A DNA stretch of 64,000 bases, from positions 37,882,001 through 37,946,000 of the forward strand of contig OX597820.1 in assembly GCA_951406725.2 (NCBI GenBank), in the 5' to 3' direction. The position numbers and the translations under genes were made by a program. A model generated the notes under the pieces. That model did not search any database. It had not been told where the DNA came from and saw only the letters and a program-made list of their open reading frames with translations. The first letter of the stretch is position 1, and each line of letters starts with the position of its first letter. Source of the stretch: Octopus vulgaris (taxonomy: Eukaryota). Shown one piece after another: positions 4,106-57,955 of the stretch.

Positions 4106-4452
4106 TTTAATGCCTATTTGATTTGAAGTAGCGAAGATATTGATATATATTTATATATTTTTTTTTTGAGCAACTGAATTTTAGTCAGTCAGTTGATGGG
4201 CCCCACTATATCAAATGTTCTTAAAATTTAAATCCACATCTTTGTCTATATATCTACCTTCTCTATAATGTTACCACTTGATATGAAAATTATGTATTAA
4301 TGGAAAACCTCTATCAATGGTTGATGAGTGCTCAGCATTTTAAAACTGTTATAATACTTACAACATTTAATAAAATGATGTAGTGCGAAACGATCGTACC
4401 AAATTACCGGAGTTATTCTTGTTGCTTATTTTGATTATATATATATATAATG

Positions 4453-6350: not shown

Positions 6351-6954
6351 TGTATGTCGTTGCCAATAGTTTTGTATATTTTGATAAAACTTCCTCTCAT
6401 ATCATAAAGATTTTAAAGAAATGAATTTCTCTGAATAGAAAATTTTTTATCCTCTATTATGTTCGTACATAACAAATTTCTGATAGTGTACATTTGCAAT
6501 AACTTCTACCTCGCAAACATCTTTAGAAAACATTCGTTTCTATATCCACAAGAAATACTACACGAATCATTTGAATATCATACACTATTTTCACAGTTAG
6601 CGAACAATAAAAGGTTTTGAACTGGGAGCCAATCTATCAATCACTACAGAATAAATGGAAGTGTGCGCCTAATCTTAAAATTTTAATGATTGTAGGCAAC
6701 AAGCAGAGTAATGTGGTTATGTGCGGCAAACATGTCCACAGGCTAGTGGCGCAATAAAAAGGGTAACGGAATATAAGCATTACAACCAGGGACTTTAGTA
6801 TTAAAGTCAATCCTCGGTTTGTCATTACTTTTGAAGTACAGTACGTGCAGGAGGTGAGATGGGTTTGGAGAGAGCTCAAAATCTCTCGTGGAAGCGTCAT
6901 CCAACCAAAGTACAAATATATGTGAAACTACCACCGGTATCATCTCTTGTGAGA

Positions 6955-7943
6955 AGAATTGGTGACGCGCATCCTCGATGATAGTGATGCTGTTGACATC
7001 GTTTTATTGGACTTTGCCAAAGCTTTTGACTCGGTAAACCACCGCCTATTACTTGTCAAGCTTCAAGCATATAGTTTCCATCCGGATATTGTACGATGGG
7101 TTGGTGCCTTCCTCTCAGATCGCTCCTTCCAAGTCCAAGTTAATGGTTCGCGGTCCGACGTCTCCAGTGCGAGCAGTGGCGTGCCTCAAGGTTCAGTGCT
7201 TGGGCCCTTGTTGTTCTTAGTCTTCATAAATGACTTGCCCGACGACCTCACGCAACATACCCTTCTATTTGCCGACGATATCAAACTGGTCGCTCCTCGC
7301 GGTAATATAGAGGATCTTCGTCGATGCCTCCACCAAATTTGGAAGTGGTCTAACGATTGGGACCTGTGTCTGAACGTGTCAAAGTGCTGTCATCTGCCTG
7401 TCGGCTCTACTCCTGCAACTCAACTTGATTTCGAGCCGGGTCGTCTGCTGCTGGAGAGGACCGATCAGGTAAAGGACCTAGGTATCTTGGTGGATTCCTC
7501 CTTTTCGCCTTCGGCCCAGTGCGTCCATGCTGCCAACAAAGCACGCGGAATTCTGTTCTTGATTCGACGGTCATTCGGAATGCTCACGGCAGCCATATTC
7601 CTACCACTCTATGTCGCCCACAACATCATAAGCGGAAAGTGTAACCTCTCGAAAGAGCTGTTCTTCACTCCTGCTCCAGAGCGTCGGCTGCGGGGTCATT
7701 CCGAAAAGCTCTACCTGCGACGATTTCATCTTAATCGAAGGAGAGGAGCTTTCTCCGTCCGGGTTGCGGATCCGTGGAACAAGCTGCCAGACGAGATGGT
7801 GAAGATGCCGACGACCGCTTTATTTCAAGTGGCCTGAACTCTTTACATGAACACCACCCTGTACTTAACTCCATGTCCCCCTACATAGCCTTGCTATTTG
7901 CTTTTGAGTCAAATTAATTAACTAACTAACTAACTAACTAACT
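6955..7943 (+). mobile_element. 5'-truncated CR1/L2-group LINE (RT ORF 6959-7837) with internal deletion and (TAAC)n tail
   Basis: Motifs LDFAKAFDSV, SGVPQGSVLGPLLFLVFIND, LFADD, KDLGI, RLRGH...FSVRVADPWNKLP; tail ctaactaactaac 7919-7943. Confidence 0.9.
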
Positions 7944-12117: not shown

Positions 12118-14788
12118 AATGTTCAAAAATAACCCCAAGAATTTTTACAGGAAGATAGGAAAAACAGCGTTTACCGTAAGGTCTGTACCATCAAAAGAAG
12201 AAGTGCAGGGATTTTGGAATAAAAATTGAAAAGGCTCCCTGGTTTGACAGAATATCTACAGAACTGGACTCCTTAGAAGAGCAAAAGTGGGAGGGTGTCA
12301 AGGTAGAAGATATAAGATCTGCTCTCAGGAGGTCAAGCAAATGGAAGTTTCCAGGAAAGGATAAAATTCCTAACTTCTGGTTGAATGTCTTTCCAGAGAG
12401 CCATGAACTGCTAACAGAACTGTACAATGATGTTTTGCAACACCCTAGTAGGATGCATCCTTGGCTAGTTAATGGGTTAACATTCCTGCTTCCAAAAAGT
12501 GAAGAAACAAATGAACCAAAAAACTATAGACCCATAACCTGCTTAACAACTATGTATAAAACGCTAACATCTGTCCTGACGGAATATACTTGTAGTTTTT
12601 TAACAGACAGCAGCATATTCCCTAATGAACAGAAAGGATGTAAACGTGGATCCTACGGTTGTAAAGATCAACTACTCATCAATAAGATGATCTTAGAAGA
12701 TTGTCACAAACGACACAAAAACTTATCAATAGCCTGGATAGACTATAAAAAGCTTTTGATAGCCTACCACATAGCTGGATTAAGAAATGCCTGGAAATGT
12801 ATAAGATAGCACCTACTCTGCGAAACTTTTTGACTAAGTATGAGATCATGGAGAACCACACTAACTCTGAACAGTGACAATGAATCTCTAGATGCTGGTG
12901 ATGTAAAAATTTCATGTGACATTTTCCAGGGTGACTCACTGTCACCACTCCTCTTTTGTTTATCCTTAATACCTCTCTCAAAACTGCTCAATGACGCGCA
13001 GTACGGGTATAAAATGTTTGATAAAAATATAAATCATCTCATTTACATGGATGATTTAAAGCTTTTTGCAAAAAATGATCAACAACTCAAGGGCTTACTA
13101 GCGATAGTCAAACAATTCAGTGACGACATCAGAATGCAATTTGGCCTCGATAAATGTGCAAAAGCTACCTTTATCAAAGGAAAAATGACAGAAACATCTA
13201 ACGCTAACATTGACCAGCAGAATGTCATAAAAGAACTAGACCCAGCGGAGAGCTACAAGTACCTAGGGGTAATTGAAGGGGACGGAATAAGGCATTCAGA
13301 GATGAAGGAAAGGATCAGGAGAGAATGTTATCGAAGAGTGAGAGCAATACTCAAGACAGAGCTGAATGCAAGAAACAGGATCGAAGCGATCAATGCATTA
13401 GCCATACCAGTCGTGACTTACAGTTTCAATATCGTTAACTGGTCAATTACTGAAATATGTCATCTTGACAGAAAAATACGAAAACTGTTGACAATACATA
13501 TAATGCACCACCCTAAGGCAGATACAGAACGACTTTATCTGCCAAGAAAAGAGGGAGGCCGTGGTCTTTTACAACTGGCAATAACAATGAAGATTGCTAC
13601 AATTGGCCTAGACACCTACCTGAAAAAGTCTGAGGACTGGATGTTAAAACTTGTCTCAAAACATGAAAACAAGAAAGCATCATACTCAGTAACAAAACAG
13701 GCAAAGGAATATCTAAGTGAATTCCGAATACAACAAATTTCGGAATTAGAGATAGTCATACAAGAAACAAGCACAGAAAAAGCTAGGCGCATGAAAACCC
13801 GTGCCAAAACTGCGGCCTTAGATATTCTGAATAATAAATGGCAAGAAAAACCTCTCTATGGCAAATACCCAAAGAGAGCGAATAATGCAGATATTGACAA
13901 AGCCTTGACCCACCAATGGCTAATGGCCTCTAGTTTAAAATCTGAAACAGAAGGGTTTATCATAGCAGCTCAATATCAATGCCTACCAACAAGAAACTAC
14001 CAGGCCAACATATTAAAGAACGGCAGTAGCCCAACATGTCGTGTATGCCGACAACAAAATGAAACCATTGATTATGTTGTCTCCAAATGCAGTCTTCTAG
14101 CGCCTACAGAGTACCTCAACAGGCATGATAGAGCTGCACAATATATTCACTGGGTAATTTGCAAAAACCTGGATTTGCCCCATGAAAAAAACTGGTGGGA
14201 ACACAATCCACCTCCAGTGCTTGAAAATGACCACATCTCACTCCTCTGGAACTTCCCCATTCAAACTGACAGAAAGATAGATGCAAATAGGCCAGACATC
14301 ATATTGAAAGACTTCAGACAAAGAACATGCCTCCTCATTGATATGACTGTCCCAATCGATATAAACGTATTTGTCAAGACCTACCAAAAACTGAGCAAAT
14401 ATAAAGATCTTGAAATAGAAATCAGCAAAATGTGGAAGCTGAAGACTAAAACAATACCTGTTGTCATAGGTGCCCTGGGAATGATAGCGAAAGGGGCTGA
14501 TTGCTACCTAACTCAGATACCAGGAAACCCCAAAATGGCAGAAATTCAAAAGATAGTGCTCATGGGAACTGCTCATATCCTACACAAAATACTTTCTATG
14601 TAATCCCAAGGTTTAAAACTTGTTTTTTTAAATTTATTTATTAGACATTCACTAGTACAACACCAACCCCACCCCAAATATATGGCACACTAGGCATAAC
14701 AACAACGTGAACTTCCAACCTGTTGTCTCTTGAGGTCTCTGGGTGAGACTTGGAGCCAACTTGTACAGATATAAAGCAAAAGTCAAAC

Positions 14789-18519: not shown

Positions 18520-19600
18520 GAATGATTTTAGCGTTGCATATAAATTATTTTGCCAGACAGTGCTAATGCTGCATTAGAAAGGTTCAGCTTTAAGAATAGC
18601 ATAAACTACATTGAACCAAATACAGGTAAATCAAGAAGACGCAGACAATGGAAAATATTACCGTTTAACCCACCTTATATTCTGAATGTCGCCTCTGTTC
18701 TAGCTGGGAAATTCTTAAAATTAATAGATAATCATTTCCCACATTCAGACAAAAATCATGAGATGTTCAATAGAAACTCTGTTAAAGCTAGCTATAGTTG
18801 CCTCGCTAATACAGGGTCTATAATACACGACCACAATAAAAATAAACACACCAGAACAACCCTCGAAAGAAAGACACTGTAACTGTAGATCTCCAAACCT
18901 ATGTCCTCTAAATTATAACTGTCTGGAAAAAGTTAAGGATCCCAGCGGAGCAACTCGTTGAAAGAAGGATAAACACAACACCTGGCGTCATTCAGGAACA
19001 AAAATAAAAGACATACGACATCCTTATCCAATATGATATGGACATTAAAAGAAGGGAGAGTAAGCAAATCCCAAATAACATGGGGCATCATTGTTAAAGC
19101 CATAAAACGCAGAGGACGGGGTACCAAATGTGAGCTCTGTATCACTGAAATATTATACAGTCTGCAGATAACATCCTAAATATTAAGGATGAATCATTCT
19201 CTTTCTCCATACACAAGCAATATTTCACACTCCAGCATTTCAAAGAGGAATCAACACCCGCACTGCCAACCTCACAAAGATATTTTCTGTCCCTGAACGT
19301 GAACATTGAATATATGCAACACACGAACTCCATACATAGAAAAATGCATACAATCCCCACTGATGAACTACCTCAGCACACAAATTCACCAGCCAACTTG
19401 GTCCCCCCCCCCCAAAAGCTGTCAGCCAAGAGTAACGCCCCTTAATTTCTTGTTTAGTTTACAAAACTTTTTGTGAATTACCGAGACTTTTCCTGAGACA
19501 TTTTGTGTTTTCATCAAAAATGGAGACGAAAACCATTCCTTCATTCATGAACAATTGTTAAGATATGAAGATATGAAACCAATAGTGGCTTTCATACACA
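18520..19600 (+). mobile_element. Decayed Penelope-like element, C-terminal GIY-YIG region plus 3' end
   Basis: FNPPY...KFLKLID.HFP...FNRNSVKASYSC, CNCR.PNLCPL..NCL, HLASFRNK...TSLSNMIWTLK, KCELC; frameshifted. Confidence 0.8.
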
Positions 19601-20725: not shown

Positions 20726-20763
<38 letters not shown>

Positions 20764-20989
20764 GAAATATTAAAATTACTAAGTCTCTCTAAAAGAGAAC
20801 AACGGCAGCGTTCCCGGAAAATATTAGTTATCGCCATACTAATATGGCATTCTTATAAAAATAAGAATAAAGCTGACCGCTTATTAGCTCCATGAGGCCA
20901 TCGCCTTAAGTTAGCTATTTGATACACAAACTGTATCCATATAACCTTTGAACAAGGGAGGTCAGTCGCTCCACACTACTTACCGGCAG

Positions 20990-21029
20990 CTACAGACGCG
21001 TTTCGGGGTATTGCCCCTTTTCAATGCAG
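20990..21029 (-). ncRNA. Minimal type I hammerhead ribozyme, U3:A8 core variant
   Basis: CUGCA-UUGAAAA-GGGG caaua CCCC-GAAA-CGCG-UC-UGUAG; stems I and II pair; stem III palindrome ACGCGU. Confidence 0.75.
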
Positions 21030-21435
21030 TGTAGCCAAACCAGTAGGTGTCGCTTCCGACAATCTCTGTTCAAAGGTTTTATTTACCTAGCTTCGGTGGA
21101 ATACATCCACTTGTTTTCAATAATAGAAATATTAAAATTACTAAGTCTCTCTAAAAGGTTATATGGATACAGTTTGTGTATCAAATAGCTAACTTAAGGC
21201 GATGGCCTCATGGAGCTAATAAGCGGTCAGCTTTATTCTTATTTTTATAAGAATGCCATATTAGTATGGCGATAACTAATATTTTCCGGGAACGCTGCCG
21301 TTGTTCTCTTTTAGAGAGACTTAGTAATTTTAATATTTCTATTATTGAAAACAAGTGGATGTATTCCACCGAAGCTAGGTAAATAAAACCTTTGAACAGA
21401 GATTGTCGGAAGCGACACCTACTGGTTTGGCTACG

Positions 21436-21475
21436 CTGCATTGAAAAGGGGCAATACCTCGAAACGCGTCTGTAG
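21436..21475 (+). ncRNA. Minimal type I hammerhead ribozyme, U3:A8 core variant (second copy)
   Basis: CUGCA-UUGAAAA-GGGG caaua CCUC-GAAA-CGCG-UC-UGUAG; the single stem II difference gives a G-U pair. Confidence 0.75.
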
Positions 21476-22371
21476 CTGCCGGCCAAGTAGTGTGGAGCGA
21501 CTGACCTCCCTTGTTCAAAGGTTATATGGATACAGTTTGTGTATCAAATAGCTAACTTAAGGCGATGGCCTCATGGAGTTAATAAGCGGTCAGCTTTATT
21601 CTTATTTTTATAAGAATGCCATATTAGTATGGCGATAACTTATATATATATATATATATATTAGTAAAATGTAAAGGATTACCACAAAATGATTACCAGT
21701 TTGCTCTCGGTTAGGTATTCAAAATATGTTATTCAACAGTTTACATATAAATCCAATTAAGTTCTTATAAGATAAGAAATTGGAGGAATATGCCGTTGGA
21801 TAATTCTGAATATATTTCCTTAACCATATATAGGTTTCCTGGAGTATAAATATTGATAATATTAAGAATAGAGATTACTCCGAAGTAGCAGTAGCATTAC
21901 CTTTAATTCTATAATTATATACTGCCTTTTAAGACCAACACTTTTTCAATTGCACCGACTAGTAATCGTTGCAATTGCAACCCTACTATTAAACGGTGCA
22001 GTCTCTTTGGGGTCTTAACTTGATAGCCGTTGGTGTGGCTGTTTAATGATTTTCTTTTATAAACTTTGCGTTGTATAATTTGGAGCTGTCCGTTAAGTCA
22101 AGCGCGTGCAATCTCTATTGGATAATCATTTTCAGTCCATCATTTCAAAACCTTGCATAGTTTAAATGCTAATTATTCATTTATACTTCGCAAATGTGAA
22201 TTTCCTCATGTGCAAGATTCTCAAAACTTGATCCTGTCTAGAATTTATTCATTACTCTTGGATGTGAAAATCCAATAAAATTCTTCTAAACATAAGTCAC
22301 ATCTATTGGTTCCAGGTCTGTATGGTTTTGCAGTACAATTTAACTTCAATTTAATCCTATAGTCCTTGATA

Positions 22372-29411: not shown

Positions 29412-30645
29412 ATATGTTTCTTTATTAGCCACACAGGGCTGCACACAGATAGAACAAATTACAAGGTAGAGCTTTTCTTTTGAAGGTTTAAGAAAGAAAA
29501 AAAAAAAAAAAAAGGAAGGGGGAGTTTCGATCAAAAGGGATCGTAAAAGGAGAGAAAGAGGACAAAAAAAGGGGGGTTTAAAAAAAAGGGGGGAGGAAAA
29601 AAATTGATCAATAGGGATCGTTATCACAGAAATGTCAATATGAAGTGTAAAGGGGAGGACAGGTGAGGTTTACCCGTGCAAAGAAAAGCCTACGGAAAAG
29701 ACCACGGTAACCTCGGTCAATGATGTCACATTTTATATTTCTTTTTTTTTTTTTTTGCAAATAAGCAACTCTCTGTTTTCGATTTCTGGGTTCATAGGAC
29801 TATGCTCAAGGTGGCTTCGTCATTCATACGTGCCATTCTTGCTACATTCACCCATCTTTTTTTAAAACATTCGCTAGACAAAACTTGCCTCTCTACTCTC
29901 ACTTTCCTTTTCAAGTGGTACTTGAAGAAGTTGATGAGAGATTGACCAGAGAGGAAAGTGTTTGTCTCCAATCCTTTCAGACGCGTCCACCAGATACATT
30001 CTTTCGCCATAGCCACAAGGATGATGAAAATAGCTCTTCCTTCCCGTTTGAAGGAAGGAGGCGTGACAATATTGACGATAGACTCAGCTGATAAACCGAC
30101 TCGTCCCACACGTGACAGCAGTTGTTCGACATAAGCCCACAGGTCGGAAATTGTTGGACACTGAACGAGTGCGTGCAGAACGGTTTCGTCGCTCTGACCG
30201 CATCTCGGGCAGGTCGGCCCCGTGTTTCTCGAGCCGTGTCTGTAGAGCTTATCCCGAACGGGTAGCGCTTCTCGGTAGCACTGCCAGGCCAGGGATCTCT
30301 GGAAGTTGTCCATGGGCCCTGGCCCGAAAGTCGTCCTGAACAGGCGGGTCAGGTACTCCTCGTCGACGTCCAGGTTCGCCCCGAGCTCGTCGTCGTACCT
30401 CCCCTCCACTAAACCCCTATAGAATGCTTTGGTTGTGTTGAAGTCACTTAAGGTCGACCCAGGACGGCAGAGTTGCTTGAGAGCAACGCGACACTCGCGG
30501 TGCCATTCGCCCTTCCTCGGCCTCTTTTTGATCCACGACTGCAGTTCGGTCATGGAGACGAGCTGCGGGAAAGCGTGCCTCACAAACGGCGACCACACCT
30601 GTTCACCGTCGTCTACATAGAGCCAGAGATGCCGCAGTCTCAGGA
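29412..30645 (-). mobile_element. 5'-truncated Tx1/L1-clade LINE (ORF2 C-terminus 29792-30598 with CCHC knuckle, plus 3' UTR)
   Basis: W..YREALPVRDKL...CPRCGQSDETVLHALVQC...W...IWWTR is a zf-RVT-like region; degenerate (GATA)n flanks. Confidence 0.85.
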
Positions 30646-31011
30646 CAGATAGATAGCCAGATTGATAGATAGATAGATAGTTAGATAGATAGATAAATAG
30701 ATATTCAGACAGATAGACAGATAAGTAGCGGGAAAAAGAGAGGAGGGGTATGCTACTTCCTATTTACTATTTAAATATTTATTTATCTATTTATTTAGTC
30801 CTTTACCATTCTATTGGAATGGGTTTAAGGATGGCGACCTCTCCCCCCCCCAAAAAAAAAGCAGTGCAGACTGGTCATGACTGAAAGCCATTTTGTTTTC
30901 TTTCTCTCTTCCCGTTTCCTTCTTTTTTCCCTCTTTCTTTCTTTTTCTCCTCTTTGAGTTATATTTAGAATACAATATATATATGCATATATATATGTGT
31001 ATATATATGTG

Positions 31012-40809: not shown

Positions 40810-41165
40810 TTTGTGTGTGTTTTTGCGTCTGTGTTTGTCTCCCCATACAGGGGATGGGAGTGTTTATGCCCCCGAAACTAAGCGGTTCGGCAAAAGACTG
40901 ATAGTAAAAAATACTTGGCTTAAAAAAGAGTCTGGGGTCAATTTGTTCGTCTAAAACAACTAAAAGAATATATGTATATGTGTATGCGTGTGTGTTTGTT
41001 TGTACTCCACCCCCGGTTTATTGACAGCCAGTGTTGGTTTGTTTACGTCCCCATAGTTTACAGGTTTCGCAAAAAGTGACCACGCTTAAAAGAAAATTAC
41101 TGGAATCAATCTGTTCGATTAATTGACTAAATCGATGAAAGCAGTGTCAACCAGCATGGTCACAT
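40810..41165 (+). mobile_element. Two decayed SINE family A 3' halves in tandem
   Basis: gtgtttatgcccc..agcggttcggcaaaa and gtttacgtcccc...cagcatgg. Confidence 0.55.
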
Positions 41166-41252
<87 letters not shown>

Positions 41253-41253
<1 letters not shown>

Positions 41254-42055
41254 GGGGATTAGTGGAGGGGAGGTACGACGACGGGCTCGGGGCGAACCTG
41301 GACGTTGACGAGGAATACCTGACCCGCCTGTTCGGGACGACTTTCGGGCCAGGGCCCATGGACAACTTCCAGGGATCCCTGGCCTGGCAGTGGTACCAAG
41401 AAGCGCTACCCGTTCGGGATAAGCTCTACAGACACGGCTCGAGAAATACGGGGCCGACCTGCCCGAGATGCGGTCAGAGCGACGAAACCGTTCTGCACGC
41501 ACTCGTGCAGTGTCCATCAATTTCCGACCTGTGGGCTTATGTCGAACAACTGCTGTCACGTGTGGGACGAGTCGGTTTATCAGCTGAGTCTATCGTCAAT
41601 ATTGTCACGTCTCCTTCCTTCAAACGGGAAGGAAGAGCTATTTTCATCATCCTTGTGGCTATGGCGAAAGAATGTATCTGGTGGACGCGTCTGAAAGGAT
41701 TGGAGACAAACACTTTCCTCTCTGTTCAATCTCTCATCAACTTCTTCAAGTACCACTTGAAAAGGAAAGTGAGAGTAGAGAGGCAAGTTTTGTCTAGCGA
41801 ATGTTTTAAAAAAAGATGGGTGAATGTAGCAAGGATGGCAAGTATGAATGACGAAGCCACCTTGAGCATAATCCTATGAACCCAGAAATTGAAAACAGAG
41901 GGTTACCCACTTGCAAACAAATGTGGTAACATGTAACAATATTGACCGAGGTTACCGTGGTCTTTTTCGTAGGCTTTTCTTCCCACGGATAAACCTTATC
42001 TGCTTCCCCCTTTATACCGTACATCATGACACTGTGATACACGATCCCTATTGAT
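41253..42055 (+). mobile_element. 5'-truncated Tx1/L1-clade LINE (ORF 41262-41879) inside (TATC)n
   Basis: Protein nearly identical to 29792-30598; (ATCT)n upstream and shortly downstream. Confidence 0.88.
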
Positions 42056-46313: not shown

Positions 46314-47956
46314 CTTTCGCTCGGTTCTCATTCTCCTTATCTGCGCCAATTCGAATTTAGCAAGCTGCATGCTCTTCCTATCCATGCTCAACCGACCCAT
46401 CTGTCTCAGCTTCTCGTCTTTCGCCCAATAACTGAAACTTTCTGAAACGCTGCCTCTGCTTACATTATTTCCGAAACAGTGAACCGCAGACCTTCAATAT
46501 GAATATCAATTCTCCTATCCCACTTGCCTACATGAGTTTCCAATGTTCATAGCCACTGATGCATCCTCTAATTAATTTTAAAAAAAGAAGGAAAAAAAAA
46601 GCAAAGCAAAGTGAATCATTGAGTGCAGTGGAGATTGTCACGTGTCAACAGTGGTTTTGGTAAGGATGCATTACTTTAGAGATAAGATACATATATCGTT
46701 GATTTTTCGCCCAGTTGACAGTTAATTCAGTCGATCGTTCACTCCGTTTGAGAGCCACTTTGGTCAGTTTATCTTTCGGCAAGGTGACCCTTCAAATGGA
46801 GTTTGTGTTGATAGATTAAAATGAGGACAAGTCTTTCTGACAAACTCATTGATGTCGCTAGATATACAGCTACTTCACTCAAGAACCAGACACGTAACAG
46901 CTTTATCCACAATAAAATATCGCACACACTTACACACACACGCACACACGCACGCAGATGTTTATACACAACCATTCACAATTACATATATACGTATACA
47001 CTCGCAGACATACACACATACGCTTATAAACAACCATTCACACTTACACACATACACATATAATCCCACATTCACAAGATGTTCCACCATACACTCGCAC
47101 ATTCACAAACGTTGATTTGAAGGCTACATATACTTGACTCCTTCAAAGATAGCCAATCATTTTATACATATAGCAATACATTACCAAGTGAACTTTTAAA
47201 TTTCCGTTAAATGGGAGGGTCTCGATTCATTTTTCTCTCTTTCTTTCTATGTCTTTCTATCTTCAAATAATTGAAATATCATATGTCATCATATCGTCCC
47301 TTGACAGAAATCAGTGGAAAGTAAGACGAAGGAGAAAGTTTCGCAGTTTCGTAGTTTTGAAAAGAATCGGTGAAGTTTGTTCTACCTACTCAGTGAAGGG
47401 AATTCTTTTAGACAAAAACAAAGTAAAACGAAAACAAAACAAAAAAATCCCCCCAAAAAACAAAAAAACCCCACAAAAATCCAACAGTAGACAAGAAATA
47501 AAATTAAATACCATTGCTGATTGCATGGCGTAAGAAGTGACATCTAAATCGATATATTAATCAATAATGAAAGTGCTTGTGTTTATTGAATGAAGAATGC
47601 TACTTTCGTCTGACGTGACACAAACATAGTTTGCTAATATTGATTGATTAGATGCTTTGGCTAGACAGAAGCCGTCGATCGAATTTAAATGAAAGGGAAG
47701 AGGTAAATTATAATTGTGTGGCGTTCATGCCTCTTCCCTAGAAAGTAGTGCCATATATTGGCTTGAATTAAAATAAAAAAAAAACACACCGTTCAAAGCT
47801 TACATTTATATTCTAGTGTAACTAACAACAACAAAGCAATCACATGATTAAAATTAGGACTAGTAAAACGAAGCTGGTGCTAGGAGATATGACAACAATG
47901 TTGTTGTTGATGATGATGATATAATGATAAGCGTGATGATAATGATGATGATGATG

Positions 47957-48016
<60 letters not shown>

Positions 48017-48017
<1 letters not shown>

Positions 48018-49428
48018 GACACAACACACAAATGAAAGAGAAAATAAAAAAAGAATACTATAGACGAGTTAGATCAATACTAAACACAGAGCTCAATGCT
48101 AAAAACAAGATAATAGGTATCAACACTTTAGCTGTCCCAGTTATAAGTTACAGCTACAATATCCTTAACTGGACACGAAATGAACTGACCAAAATAGATA
48201 GGAAAACAAGAAAAATAATGACAGGATCTAGGATGCATCACCCAAAATCTGACATAGAAAGACTATATATACAACGTATAGAAGGTGGTAGAGGCCTTAT
48301 ACAGCTGGAAAACTACTATAAAATAACCACCATAGGACTGCAAAAATATCTACTTCAGAAGGAAGGAAAACTGATCCAGATAGCGGCAAAACACGAGCAA
48401 AACAAAAAAACTGTTCTCAGTATTTAAGGAAGCTGACAAATACAAACAAGAAATCATACCACCTAATAAACATGAAGAAGAAGAAGAAGATGGAGAAACA
48501 ACAAAAGCTATAAAACAAATGAAATCCAAACTAAAAATAGAACAGCAACGAACCATGATAAAACGATGGCAAGAAAAGCCCCTTCATGGTAAATACTGAA
48601 CTAAATTAAACGCAAAAGAAATAGACAAAGAAAAATCCCAGCAATGGTTGAGAAGCTCAGGACTCAAAGCAGAAACAGAGGGATTTTTAATTGCAGCACA
48701 AGACCAAAGCCTCCCCACCAGAAATTACCAAAAACATGTAATGAAAAGAAATATTACAAGTAACTGCAGAATATGTGATGGACAAGAAACAATAAATCAT
48801 ATTATCTCTAGCTGCCCAGTCCTGGCTAAGAAGGAATATATTCACAGACATGACAGAGTTGGAACCTACATACATTGGAAGCTATGCCAACATTATGGAA
48901 TAACAACAGAAAAAAGATGGTATAGGCACACACCAGAAAAAGGTCACAAAAAACGAGAAAGCAACCATACTCTGGGATATGCCGATACACACAGATAGAG
49001 AAATTAAAGCCAACAGACCAGATATAGTTGTCAGAGACCATGAAGAAAAAAATGCTTTCTAATTGATGTATCAATACCGGCTGATGACAACGTGTCTCTA
49101 AAAGAAATGGAGAAACTCTCAAAATACAAAGACCTGGAAATAGAGGTAACTAGAATGTGGAATCTGAAAACAGAAACAATTCCTATCATAGTAGGTGCAT
49201 TAGGTATGATAAAAAAATATTCAGACAAATACATAACAAAAACACCAGGACTTACAAACACATATAACATACAGAAAATTGCACTACTAGGCACTGCACA
49301 CATCCTACGCAGAACACTTTCCATACAATAACCATCAGAGCATCACAACAAATCACAGCACATACCCAAGGCACACAGAGCTGCGCTCGGTAGTGAAGTG
49401 AAAGCACGCTATAAAAATAAAACTACTG
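48017..49428 (+). mobile_element. 5'-truncated Dong/R4-clade LINE, second subfamily, in (TAA)n
   Basis: HHPKSDIERLY...GGRGL, GLKAETEG.LIAAQDQ, CRIC...HIISSC, RHD, KLSKYKDL; frameshifts and stops; (TAA)n on both sides. Confidence 0.92.
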
Positions 49429-55240: not shown

Positions 55241-55676
55241 ACGTATTTAAGCGAACTTTAGAATAGTTCAAATACGTTTTTGACATATTTTAACTTCTAA
55301 GGATATGTTCACAGCAGTTACTGTAACTTCTAAAAGCAAATTGACAGCAACTATCAGACGCGTTTCTGGCTCTTTATCGTTATCAATGGGAAAAACCAAT
55401 GTGAGATAACTCTGGGCAGATTTTAAAGAAAATACAATCAACAACATTGAGTGAGTTGTGCTAAGAAATTCAGTAGTATCAGCGCCAGGCAGTGTTTACG
55501 TATTTCCCATTGATAACGGATAAAGAGCTAGAGGCTTTTCATACCTTTTACCATCATACAAAATTCTTTAATCCACGGTAACTGCAGAGAATTTGCCTTC
55601 AGAAGGTGAAACATACCACAATCATATTTTAACTAACCTAAAGTTCGCTAATGCCTAAACACTGCTTGGCGCTGAC
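55241..55676. mobile_element. Second, older retrozyme-like locus: unit of about 257 nt plus an inverted, permuted partial copy
   Basis: acgtattt at 55241 and 55498 delimits the minus-strand unit; plus arm 55503-55676 runs across the unit junction; minus-strand motif CA-UUGAUAA...GAAACGCGUC-UG at about 55347-55390. Confidence 0.65.
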
Positions 55677-56109: not shown

Positions 56110-56134
56110 TATATATATATATATATATATATGT

Positions 56135-57955
56135 AAAGTTAATCCAAACATGAAAACACAAAGAGAAAACTCAACAATGTGTGGGCGTGGAACAAGTACA
56201 GTGTTATTGGACGCTCAGGAAAGGAAACAAAGAAGGAAAATTTAACGATTCGAGCGGAGCTCTTCCTCACAAACATAGAAAGAGGAAAGACCCAAGGGAG
56301 GGAAGACGGAGGAAAAAATCGCCAACGATACACACACGGGTACATATTGAATGACCGAAAAAGTTCTTTCAAAGACAGGAGATTGCAAGAGAAGGAGGTA
56401 TGTGTGTGTTTGTGTGTGTTTGTGTGCGTGTAATGATAGCACGTGTGTATGATTGTGGCTGTTAATCTATGTGTGGTTGGGTTTAGTATCGTTTAAGGTC
56501 ATAGGAGTGGCTCCTGTTGTGTCTCTACCTACACATGTGCAGAGAAGAATGGTCAGTAGAAGGTACTGGAAGCTTGAAGTATGTGTGTGTGCTTTGTTTG
56601 CAGTGTGTGTGTGAGTGTATGCATGTATGTGTGTGTTCGTGTATGTGTAGGGGTTGTGTGTGTGGGGAATAACTACTTTACTTTATGTATGTGTGCGTGT
56701 GTGCTTGTATGTGCGTATGTGTGTATACATATATATGTATAATTGTGTGCGTGTATGTATGAGTGTGTGATGTGTGTATGGGAGGTATGTGTGGGTTCAT
56801 TTGCGGGTGCGTGTGTGTGTATGTGCGTGCGTGTCGTATGTGCATGTAGTTGTGTGTGCGTGCATGTATTCGTGTGTATGTGTGTGCGTGTGTGCGTATG
56901 TGGGTGTGTATAGGTGTATGTGTGGGGCTGTGAGTGTTAGGTATGTGTATCTTCGTGTGTGTGCATGTTTGTGCGTGTGTGTGTGTGTGTCTATATGTAT
57001 ATGCGTATGTGTATGTGTGTGTGCGTATATGCATGTATTGAGTGTGTATGTATATGTATAGGTCGGTATGTGAATTTGTGTATGCGTGTGTGCGTGGGGG
57101 TTTGTGGGTTTTGTGTAGGCGTAATGTGCGTATCTGCGTGTATGTACGTGCGTGTGCTTGTGTGTGTGTGTGCTTACGTGCATGTGTGCGTTTCTGTATG
57201 TGTATTGTGTGTTGGAGGTATACGTGCGAACCTGTGCTAGTGTGTGTGTATGTACGTGTGTATATGTGTGTGTGCGTGTATTATGTGCATATGTGTGTGC
57301 GTGTGTATATATGTGTGTGTATGTGCGTGAGTGTGTATATGTGTGTGTGAACGTGGAGATATGTGTCGGGTTATGTGTGCATTTTGTTGTGTGTACGCGC
57401 GTGTGCTTGAGCATGTGTGTGTATGTGGTTGTGTGTACGTTTATATGTGTGTTTGTCTAAAGGTATGTGTGTTTGTGTGTGCGTGGGATTGTGTGGGATA
57501 GGTATCCGTGCATTCCTGTGCGTGTGTATGTGTGTGTGTACGTGTGTGTGTGTACGTGTGTGTGTGTATGTGTATGTATGCGTGTGTGTATGTGTGTGTG
57601 TGGAAGTATGTGCGTGTATATGTGCATGTATGTATGTTGTATGTGTGTGGTGTGTGAGAGGTATATATGCGTTCGTGGATACGTAAGTATGCGTGTGTAT
57701 GCGTGCGTGTGTATAGAAATAAAAACAATGATTTATAAAAACAATAAATTATAAACAATAAAAATCAAAAAAATTATAAAACAATAAAATATAAAAAGAT
57801 TGAAAGGAGATAAGGAAGTCAATGCAATATAAATGGCGCAATTACAAGTAAGAAAATGAAAAATGAGAAAAGAAATCAAGTTGCTTGTTGCGGGAGGTGT
57901 AGAGGCAGTCACTAGGAGGAGGGGGTTATGTTAAGTCCATGGGGATAGTAATAAA
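56135..57955 (-). mobile_element. Penelope-like element 3' end: last codons, 1.3-kb scrambled CA-rich tract, pseudo-LTR with decayed HHR
   Basis: Minus strand YPHGLNITPSS* near 57910-57950 (P.GLN is the PLE endonuclease terminal motif); HHR-like UUU-gUGAGGA-A-GAGC ucc GCUC-GAAuC-GUU-AAA at 56241-56273. Confidence 0.55.

Follow-up and report, generated by a model that had tools for sequence, protein, structure and literature searches.

Within a (TA)n tract of the window, by which we mean the whole 64,000-nt stretch of Octopus vulgaris DNA that was analysed, two inverted arms of a 362/363-nt repeat meet head to head, raising the question of what kind of element this is, from which RNA it was copied and by which enzyme. 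We consider it probable, reading from the sequence, that the locus is a young insertion of a 363-nt non-LTR retrozyme-like family, which would be mobilised by a Penelope-like element (PLE) and whose RNA is predicted to cleave and circularise itself. The two arms, their AAAG junction and the (TA)n flanks were all borne out as the original prediction had described them, coordinates included. The features of the insertion are listed below, with unit phases counted from 21154 (phase 1).

20731..20757, (TA)n target, left flank
20758..21157, minus strand, left arm, 400 nt = 1.10 units, phase 155 to 192
20758..20820, minus strand, 63-nt 'tail' (phase 130-192), present at one 3' end only
21154..21157, 5'-to-5' arm junction with AAAG microhomology (arm overlap)
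21154..21640, plus strand, right arm, 487 nt = 1.34 units, phase 1 to 124
21154..21516, plus strand, one full 363-nt unit
21641..21661, (TA)n target, right flank

Both outer arm ends adjoin (TA)n, and the right arm reaches phase 129 (21645) when the TA microhomology is counted. Units in the window start 362 and 363 nt apart. Three substitutions and one one-base indel distinguish the two arms, and one substitution separates the copies within the right (plus) arm. The GC content of the window region is 0.35. The unit had been described as ORF-less, in agreement with a longest ATG-started frame in the concatenated unit of 38 aa on the plus strand and 77 aa on the minus strand. Elsewhere in the window lie ordinary LINE-type reverse transcriptase remnants (6953-7837, 12180-14603, 29792-30763, 41139-41879 and 47867-48998). 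Each arm contains a hammerhead motif, composed as follows.

21428..21481, plus strand, extended type I hammerhead of the right arm, predicted cut 21470/21471
21428-31/21478-81, plus strand, distal helix
21432-34, plus strand, TAC bulge, opposite T21477
21435-21440/21471-21476, plus strand, stem I
21441-21447, plus strand, core TTGAAAA (U3:A8)
21448-21451/21457-21460, plus strand, stem II with loop CAATA
21461-21464, plus strand, GAAA box
21464-21469, plus strand, palindrome ACGCGT with one-pair stem III
20985..21037, minus strand, left-arm hammerhead, core 21024-21018, predicted cut 20995/20994

Helix I has 6 bp, helix II has 4 bp and helix III consists of one pair with a palindromic loop, within the 1-2 bp expected of helix III in such motifs. 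This layout is canonical type I, not minimal, by the definition in PMC4209133 (cited here, like the other publications below, from the parts of the text available). The original prediction had called the motif a minimal type I hammerhead, which is the wrong class, as the 3-nt bulge and the distal helix give an extended canonical form; its palindromic stem III, ACGCGT, was found as claimed. We take the 3-nt bulge opposite U and the CAA(A)UA loop to resemble the tertiary-contact elements of Schistosoma. In the right-arm hammerhead a private C>T turns one stem II pair into G.U, and the predicted fold is kept. With one stem I pair disrupted by a G>A change and a shift of register in the predicted fold, the left-arm copy is likely impaired. 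Rfam scans of the window hammerheads gave no match to a hammerhead model.

Conservation of the motif was followed in an alignment of 21 family copies, corresponding to 18 distinct rows, in which 95.8% of the alignment cells are paired. Four pairs show two-sided changes, one in stem I, two in the distal helices and one in stem II. These changes amount to 23 cells, a value reached by 0/500 shuffles, while slid controls gave 0-4 cells. Counted as pairs only, the covariation did not rise above the shuffles (181/500), a control that ignores relatedness. Position N7 is A, C or U, and U3 and A8 are invariant in the alignment. Because the pair count lies within the shuffles and related copies share changes, the covariation and the fixed U3 and A8 are taken as support, not proof, that the motif may be under selection. 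Genome-wide pattern search revealed no family copy with the canonical C3:G8 core and two with U3:G8, and five family rows with C3:A8 were present among the 30 matches of a pattern search. The claim that the U3:A8 core escapes a search for CUGANGA was thus upheld.

Other hammerhead-like motifs were also observed. One, with a C3:G8 core and palindromic stem III (L036:100-420, the same as L205 near 2404, plus strand), occupies the loop of an inverted repeat with a rod-like shape and possibly belongs to a different family. A short repeat with (TA)n at its end and a minimal hammerhead-like box occurs at window 56130-56300 (minus strand), where the box is decayed, and at L255:1680-1830, where it is intact; this repeat probably represents the 3' terminus of a further PLE. 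At window 55345-55400 (minus strand) a TTGATAA...GAAACGCGTC motif stands by itself, with a stem II that is weak; it is outside the 363-nt family and resembles several scattered matches of the second-pattern search described below.

The core pattern gave 1161 exact matches in the genome compared with 0 for the reversed control, indicating that the hammerhead core is not due to chance. A second pattern, with 255 matches against 33 in its control, exposed further subfamilies. At least five subfamilies were observed, about 82-99% identical to the window unit. Searching the genome with the unit itself returned 1105 candidates, and the best 40, which were scored, contain full units 98-100% identical. 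Extrapolation from 100 of the core matches gives a rough estimate of ~800 insertions, and the core matches are spread over many chromosomes. Tandem multimers were found, as anticipated, in arrays reaching 7.6 units. The family is young, multicopy and retrozyme-like, as had been supposed. Family sequence is also present in contigs from organisms A, B and C. Among the records carrying the sequence none was listed as RNA, and for 14 sequencing runs an RNA origin is only a guess. Contigs from four of these runs covered 18-23 of 30 bins and contain subfamily-type variants; one contig crosses the predicted cut, and ends were not reported to accumulate anywhere.

Two pairs of loci deserve separate description. 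L003 and L231, on C14 and C1, have one insertion structure with matching flanks and are apparently a DNA-level duplication that includes the flanks. L014 (G000:C22:33.99 Mb) and L216 (G000:C13:26.20 Mb) have identical junction and arm lengths, each with a 74-nt inverted arm and 3.79 units, and their flanks differ. Their unit haplotypes also differ in every copy, so neither locus can have arisen by plain copying of the other.

The ends of the insertions were mapped in two sets, the first of 59 distinct loci with 95 3' ends (one edge-cut arm was dropped) and the second of 40 further loci with 73 3' ends (L249 overlaps L103). The 3' ends fall in phase 119-133 or 185-196 in 89/95 and 68/73 cases, respectively (157/168 combined), although the two windows together make up 7% of the unit. 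The spacing of the two sites is 63-64 nt. As foreseen for the flanks, (TA)n lies within 30 nt of 84/95 3' ends in the first set. Two-arm insertions with 3' ends outward were found at 36/59 and 30/40 loci, and these and the length figures are not genome-wide rates since many loci were picked for best match or multimers. They combine an inner and an outer end in 29/36 and 25/30 cases, that is, 54 of the 66; in 10 an end is unclassified, and among the 56 with both ends classified two have ends of the same class. The 5' ends are scattered around the unit, with a hot spot at phase 352-7 (33/168), and four of the 168 lie within 5 nt of the predicted cut, where ~5 are expected. At 30 of 50 junctions the arms overlap by 2-4 nt.

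The window insertion conforms to this pattern. Its left-arm 3' end is the outer site and its right-arm 3' end the inner site, so it fits the PLE two-start scheme exactly, and its junction at 21154..21157 falls in the 5'-end hot spot, on the long rod stem. The differing phases of its outer ends had been read as permutation, but they are the two fixed 3' ends of the family. The idea of permuted ends is thus half wrong, as the 5' ends vary and the 3' ends are fixed at two sites. PLE traits include 5' truncation, an inverted 5'-truncated copy, a one-sided tail and a bias to (TA)n (PMC8557442). In vitro, both target strands are nicked and extended by a purified PLE protein, which begins reverse transcription at two sites inside the RNA, and the interval between these sites is the tail (PMC11167929). 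At the level of sequence, the pairs of 3' ends 63-64 nt apart are the PLE 'tail' signature of two internal priming sites. Since the two 3' ends, the tail, the inversion and the (TA)n target all match PLE traits, we propose that the 363-nt family is mobilised by a PLE.

The template of the reverse transcription was considered next to these ends. A cleaved linear monomer is excluded, as the arms cross the cut site and extend to 7.6 units. Ten diagnostic variants were analysed at 61 loci at least 93% identical. The variants are uniform in 118/129 multi-copy arm sites and common to both arms at 79/90 sites, the arms disagreeing at 11/90, one of which is in the window insertion. This points to one type of RNA per insertion. 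Uniform variants fit a circle and a homogeneous linear multimer alike, and genomic DNA does not separate the two. A circle could serve as template, because internal priming would need no RNA 3' end.

The predicted circle is stable and highly self-paired, with the hammerhead free to fold. Circular minimum free energies of three folds gave z scores of -6.6 to -8.1 (25 shuffles each), and stems I and II form in the prediction; the reverse complements fold nearly as well, with z scores of -5.7 to -6.8. Two-sided changes were found at 8 of 97 consensus pairs across 14 units.

Based on these results, we propose the following cycle. Multimeric transcripts would cut themselves behind GUC; dimers held together by the palindromic stem III are probably the active form, and ligation would turn the resulting 363-nt monomers into circles. 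A PLE reverse transcriptase-endonuclease would nick both strands of a (TA)n tract and start two cDNAs at internal positions of the RNA, phases ~125-129 and ~189-192. Either cDNA might then run for a variable length through the cleavage site, often over several units, and joining of the two by 2-4 nt of microhomology would yield a head-to-head insertion with the 63-64-nt tail on one side. That a hammerhead-made circle is copied round and round from two internal starts by a PLE enzyme unrelated to it in sequence is a tentative reading, to which we give slightly less than an even chance. In vitro, 8/9 predicted Xenopus retrozyme dimers were uncleaved (bioRxiv 10.64898/2026.07.22.740005), and hammerhead cleavage is dispensable for PLE insertion (PMC11167929).

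The insertions may instead be PLE-driven from an uncleaved linear multimer derived from existing arrays, the hammerhead cutting rarely or with the aid of protein and circles, if any, being by-products. Internal priming works on linear RNA, unprocessed RNA is the main substrate of the Anolis PLE (PMC11167929), and the arrays are homogeneous, so that linear copies would be equally uniform. The common junction and arm lengths of L014 and L216 at different sites would fit copying of a whole array; against this, their haplotypes differ in every copy. In addition, 30 single-arm copies, compared immediately outside their ends, revealed no 5' flank in common, and selection appears strong on both the extended hammerhead and the rod fold, suggesting that processing matters. 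We regard the linear multimer as an unlikely template, though one of appreciable weight beside the circle.

Young PLEs of the Hydra and Neptune types, which have long open reading frames and the same inner/outer end pattern, are present in the genome. The resident PLEs compared here are an incomplete set of Hydra- and Neptune-type elements and other GIY-YIG loci. Hydra-1 (L063) has 3796 hammerhead matches and a tail of 71-73 nt; it was assigned to the Hydra clade by its RWK and DKT motifs (PMC8557442), and its protein gave no Pfam match. Hydra-2 (L256) has a frame of ~960 aa, 1004 hammerhead matches and a tail of ~175-180 nt. Neptune-1 (L130) encodes 781 aa with RT and GIY-YIG and has 1437 hammerhead matches and a tail of 32-41 nt. 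Its hammerhead has a U3:A8 core and palindromic stem III. Neptune-2 has a tail of ~32-34 nt at two loci. The Neptune label was given for three features (GIY-YIG at the C-terminus, a DKG motif and a CX4CxxC linker) and does not come from a tree.

Several observations concern these PLEs themselves. The young Neptune-type PLE comprises L125-L133, L137 and L138 (ORF at L130:1139-3481, hammerhead at 4366) and has a further long open frame upstream of the RT ORF. The young Hydra-clade PLE comprises L063-L074 and L145-L174, with half of its clusters inverted, and Hydra-1 includes many tiny fold-back insertions in which two hammerheads lie ~40-60 nt apart. The second young Hydra-type PLE (L255-L284) has a 3' UTR of >2 kb and a hammerhead with a ~90-nt insert in stem II. 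A decayed fragment of an older-group Hydra-type PLE is present in the window at 18544-19150 (plus strand); the older Hydra group, including the stretch 18544-18882 of this fragment, has neither similarity to the unit nor an intact hammerhead.

An autonomous PLE that the searches did not find could have the unit as its pseudo-LTR or 3' end, the insertions of the unit being ordinary 5'-truncated copies. In favour of this, PLEs show the same fixed 3' ends, tail, inversion and (TA)n target, a U3:A8 core and a palindromic stem III occur together in the hammerhead of the resident Neptune-type PLE, and the genome searches scored the best candidates only. On the other side, 5' of the 3' end the copies run into the next unit, up to 7.6 units, and never into an ORF. 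As had been anticipated, no ORF is linked: at 0/98 loci is a PLE ORF joined to the 5' end of an arm (flanks of ~0.5-2 kb), and PLE ORF fragments occur nearby at 7/98 loci, the nearest (L030) ~900 nt upstream beyond a TA run. Comparison of the unit with Hydra-1, the older Hydra group, Hydra-2, Neptune-1, Neptune-2 and other GIY-YIG loci, 3' ends included, brought out no sequence kinship, the best match being a 16-nt AT-rich word with an E value of 0.02. We therefore hold an autonomous parent of this kind to be very improbable. The original prediction had proposed that copies abutting a PLE ORF with fixed ends would denote an ordinary pLTR; this test is too coarse, since fixed ends were found and ORF-linked copies were absent.

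Spread without PLE priming, either as a DNA-level minisatellite or by randomly primed circle cDNA with permuted ends, is the least probable reading and hardly tenable: the 5' ends are distributed around the unit and L003/L231 are apparently a DNA-level duplication with flanks, but neither random priming nor unequal crossing-over predicts 3' ends at two sites and one of each in nearly all classified two-arm insertions.

The tail of the family is 64 nt compared with 32-41, 71-73 and ~175-180 nt in the resident PLE families, and none of the measured PLE tails equals the 63-64 nt of the family. An apparent identity of the tail with that of Hydra-1 (63 and 63 nt) was dropped, as L063 has a small deletion and most copies have 71-73 nt. 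When the two priming regions of the unit were aligned with those of Hydra-1, the score did not stand out, as 85% of shuffles did as well. Clusters with a hammerhead in both arms amount to 32/64 for Hydra-1, 25/68 for Hydra-2, 4/92 for Neptune-1 and 9/69 for the 363-nt family, the last not different from Neptune-1 (p 0.08). By direct inspection 12/20 loci were two-armed, Neptune-1 being counted by clusters only. The frequency of two arms is a weak fingerprint of the driver, and the like-for-like value of 9/69 does not favour Hydra. The frequent inverted arms and the long tail lean towards Hydra as driver, and the U3:A8 core leans towards Neptune. A Hydra-clade driver is slightly favoured, although the like-for-like inversion count gives Hydra no advantage.

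The route by which animal retrozymes return to the genome is an open question, which the footprint addresses. PLEs have been proposed as retrozyme drivers from co-occurrence and pLTR similarity (PMC7229834; bioRxiv 10.64898/2026.07.22.740005), and the U3:A8 swap and the idea of a circle are not new in themselves. Each of the parts is known, and the value lies in the mechanistic link, a PLE priming footprint on a retrozyme-type repeat: the tail, inversion and (TA)n signature is borne by hundreds of young copies, and the priming sites are mapped within a few bases. If a circle is copied by an unrelated PLE enzyme, this would name the missing mobilisation step of animal retrozymes and would mean that structure alone is enough for PLE proteins to take up RNAs unrelated to them. 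The in vitro PLE assay (PMC11167929) makes the driver enzyme and the circular template directly testable. In addition, surveys based on CUGANGA miss whole families, as both the 363-nt family and the resident Neptune-type PLE are U3:A8. In the literature consulted, mostly open-access, there is no description of the 363-nt family, of a cephalopod retrozyme or of retrozyme insertions with a PLE tail, though the repeat may be listed in Repbase or Dfam under a different name; only 24/57 Xenopus retrozyme families have a Repbase match (bioRxiv 10.64898/2026.07.22.740005). The supplement of PMC7229834 covers further invertebrate retrozymes and may bear on novelty.

Similar to Chlamys MRC1 (PMC8557442), the family is ORF-less with multicopy head-to-tail insertions, which in Chlamys are PLE parasites. 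Non-autonomous PLEs of Chlamys generally have 3' sequence in common with an autonomous partner, as far as described in the available part of PMC8557442, whereas none was found here; most Chlamys are without canonical hammerheads (PMC8557442), whereas the 363-nt family has one. Natural U3:A8 hammerheads with the same compensatory 3-8 swap are active in vitro (PMC3088659, PMC4209133), and U3:A8 is found in the minimal hammerhead of the S. mansoni Cercyon PLE (PMC4209133). Here the swap occurs in an extended type I motif of a tandem retrozyme-like unit, and separately in the pLTR of the resident Neptune-type PLE.

Like Hydra and Neptune PLEs (PMC8557442, PMC11167929), the family has two fixed 3' ends, 5' truncation, an inverted 5' copy, a (TA)n target and a hammerhead upstream of the ends. 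Unlike PLEs as described in these sources, it has no RT/GIY-YIG ORF, it forms multimers of whole units whereas PLEs form ORF-bearing partial tandems, and its hammerhead is extended canonical and not of the minimal PLE type.

Known animal non-LTR retrozymes include those of coral, Mytilus (350-390 bp) and axolotl (330/350 bp) (PMC7229834). Unlike these, the 363-nt family has the U3:A8 core in all subfamilies and strict (TA)n targeting, and its inverted two-arm insertions with a PLE tail are absent from the animal retrozyme descriptions in the available parts of PMC7229834 and bioRxiv 10.64898/2026.07.22.740005. Xenopus retrozymes show pLTR kinship (bioRxiv 10.64898/2026.07.22.740005), whereas none was found among the PLEs compared for the 363-nt family, known from DNA. 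In common with animal non-LTR retrozymes (PMC7229834; bioRxiv 10.64898/2026.07.22.740005), it has a short (150-450 bp), low-GC (under 50%), ORF-less tandem unit with one type I hammerhead, dispersed monomers to multimers and a highly paired predicted circle. Its one-pair stem III with a palindromic tetraloop is as in axolotl HHR_Amex1, a hammerhead that has to dimerise for efficient cleavage (PMC7229834). The family thus falls within the sequence-level definition of an animal non-LTR retrozyme.
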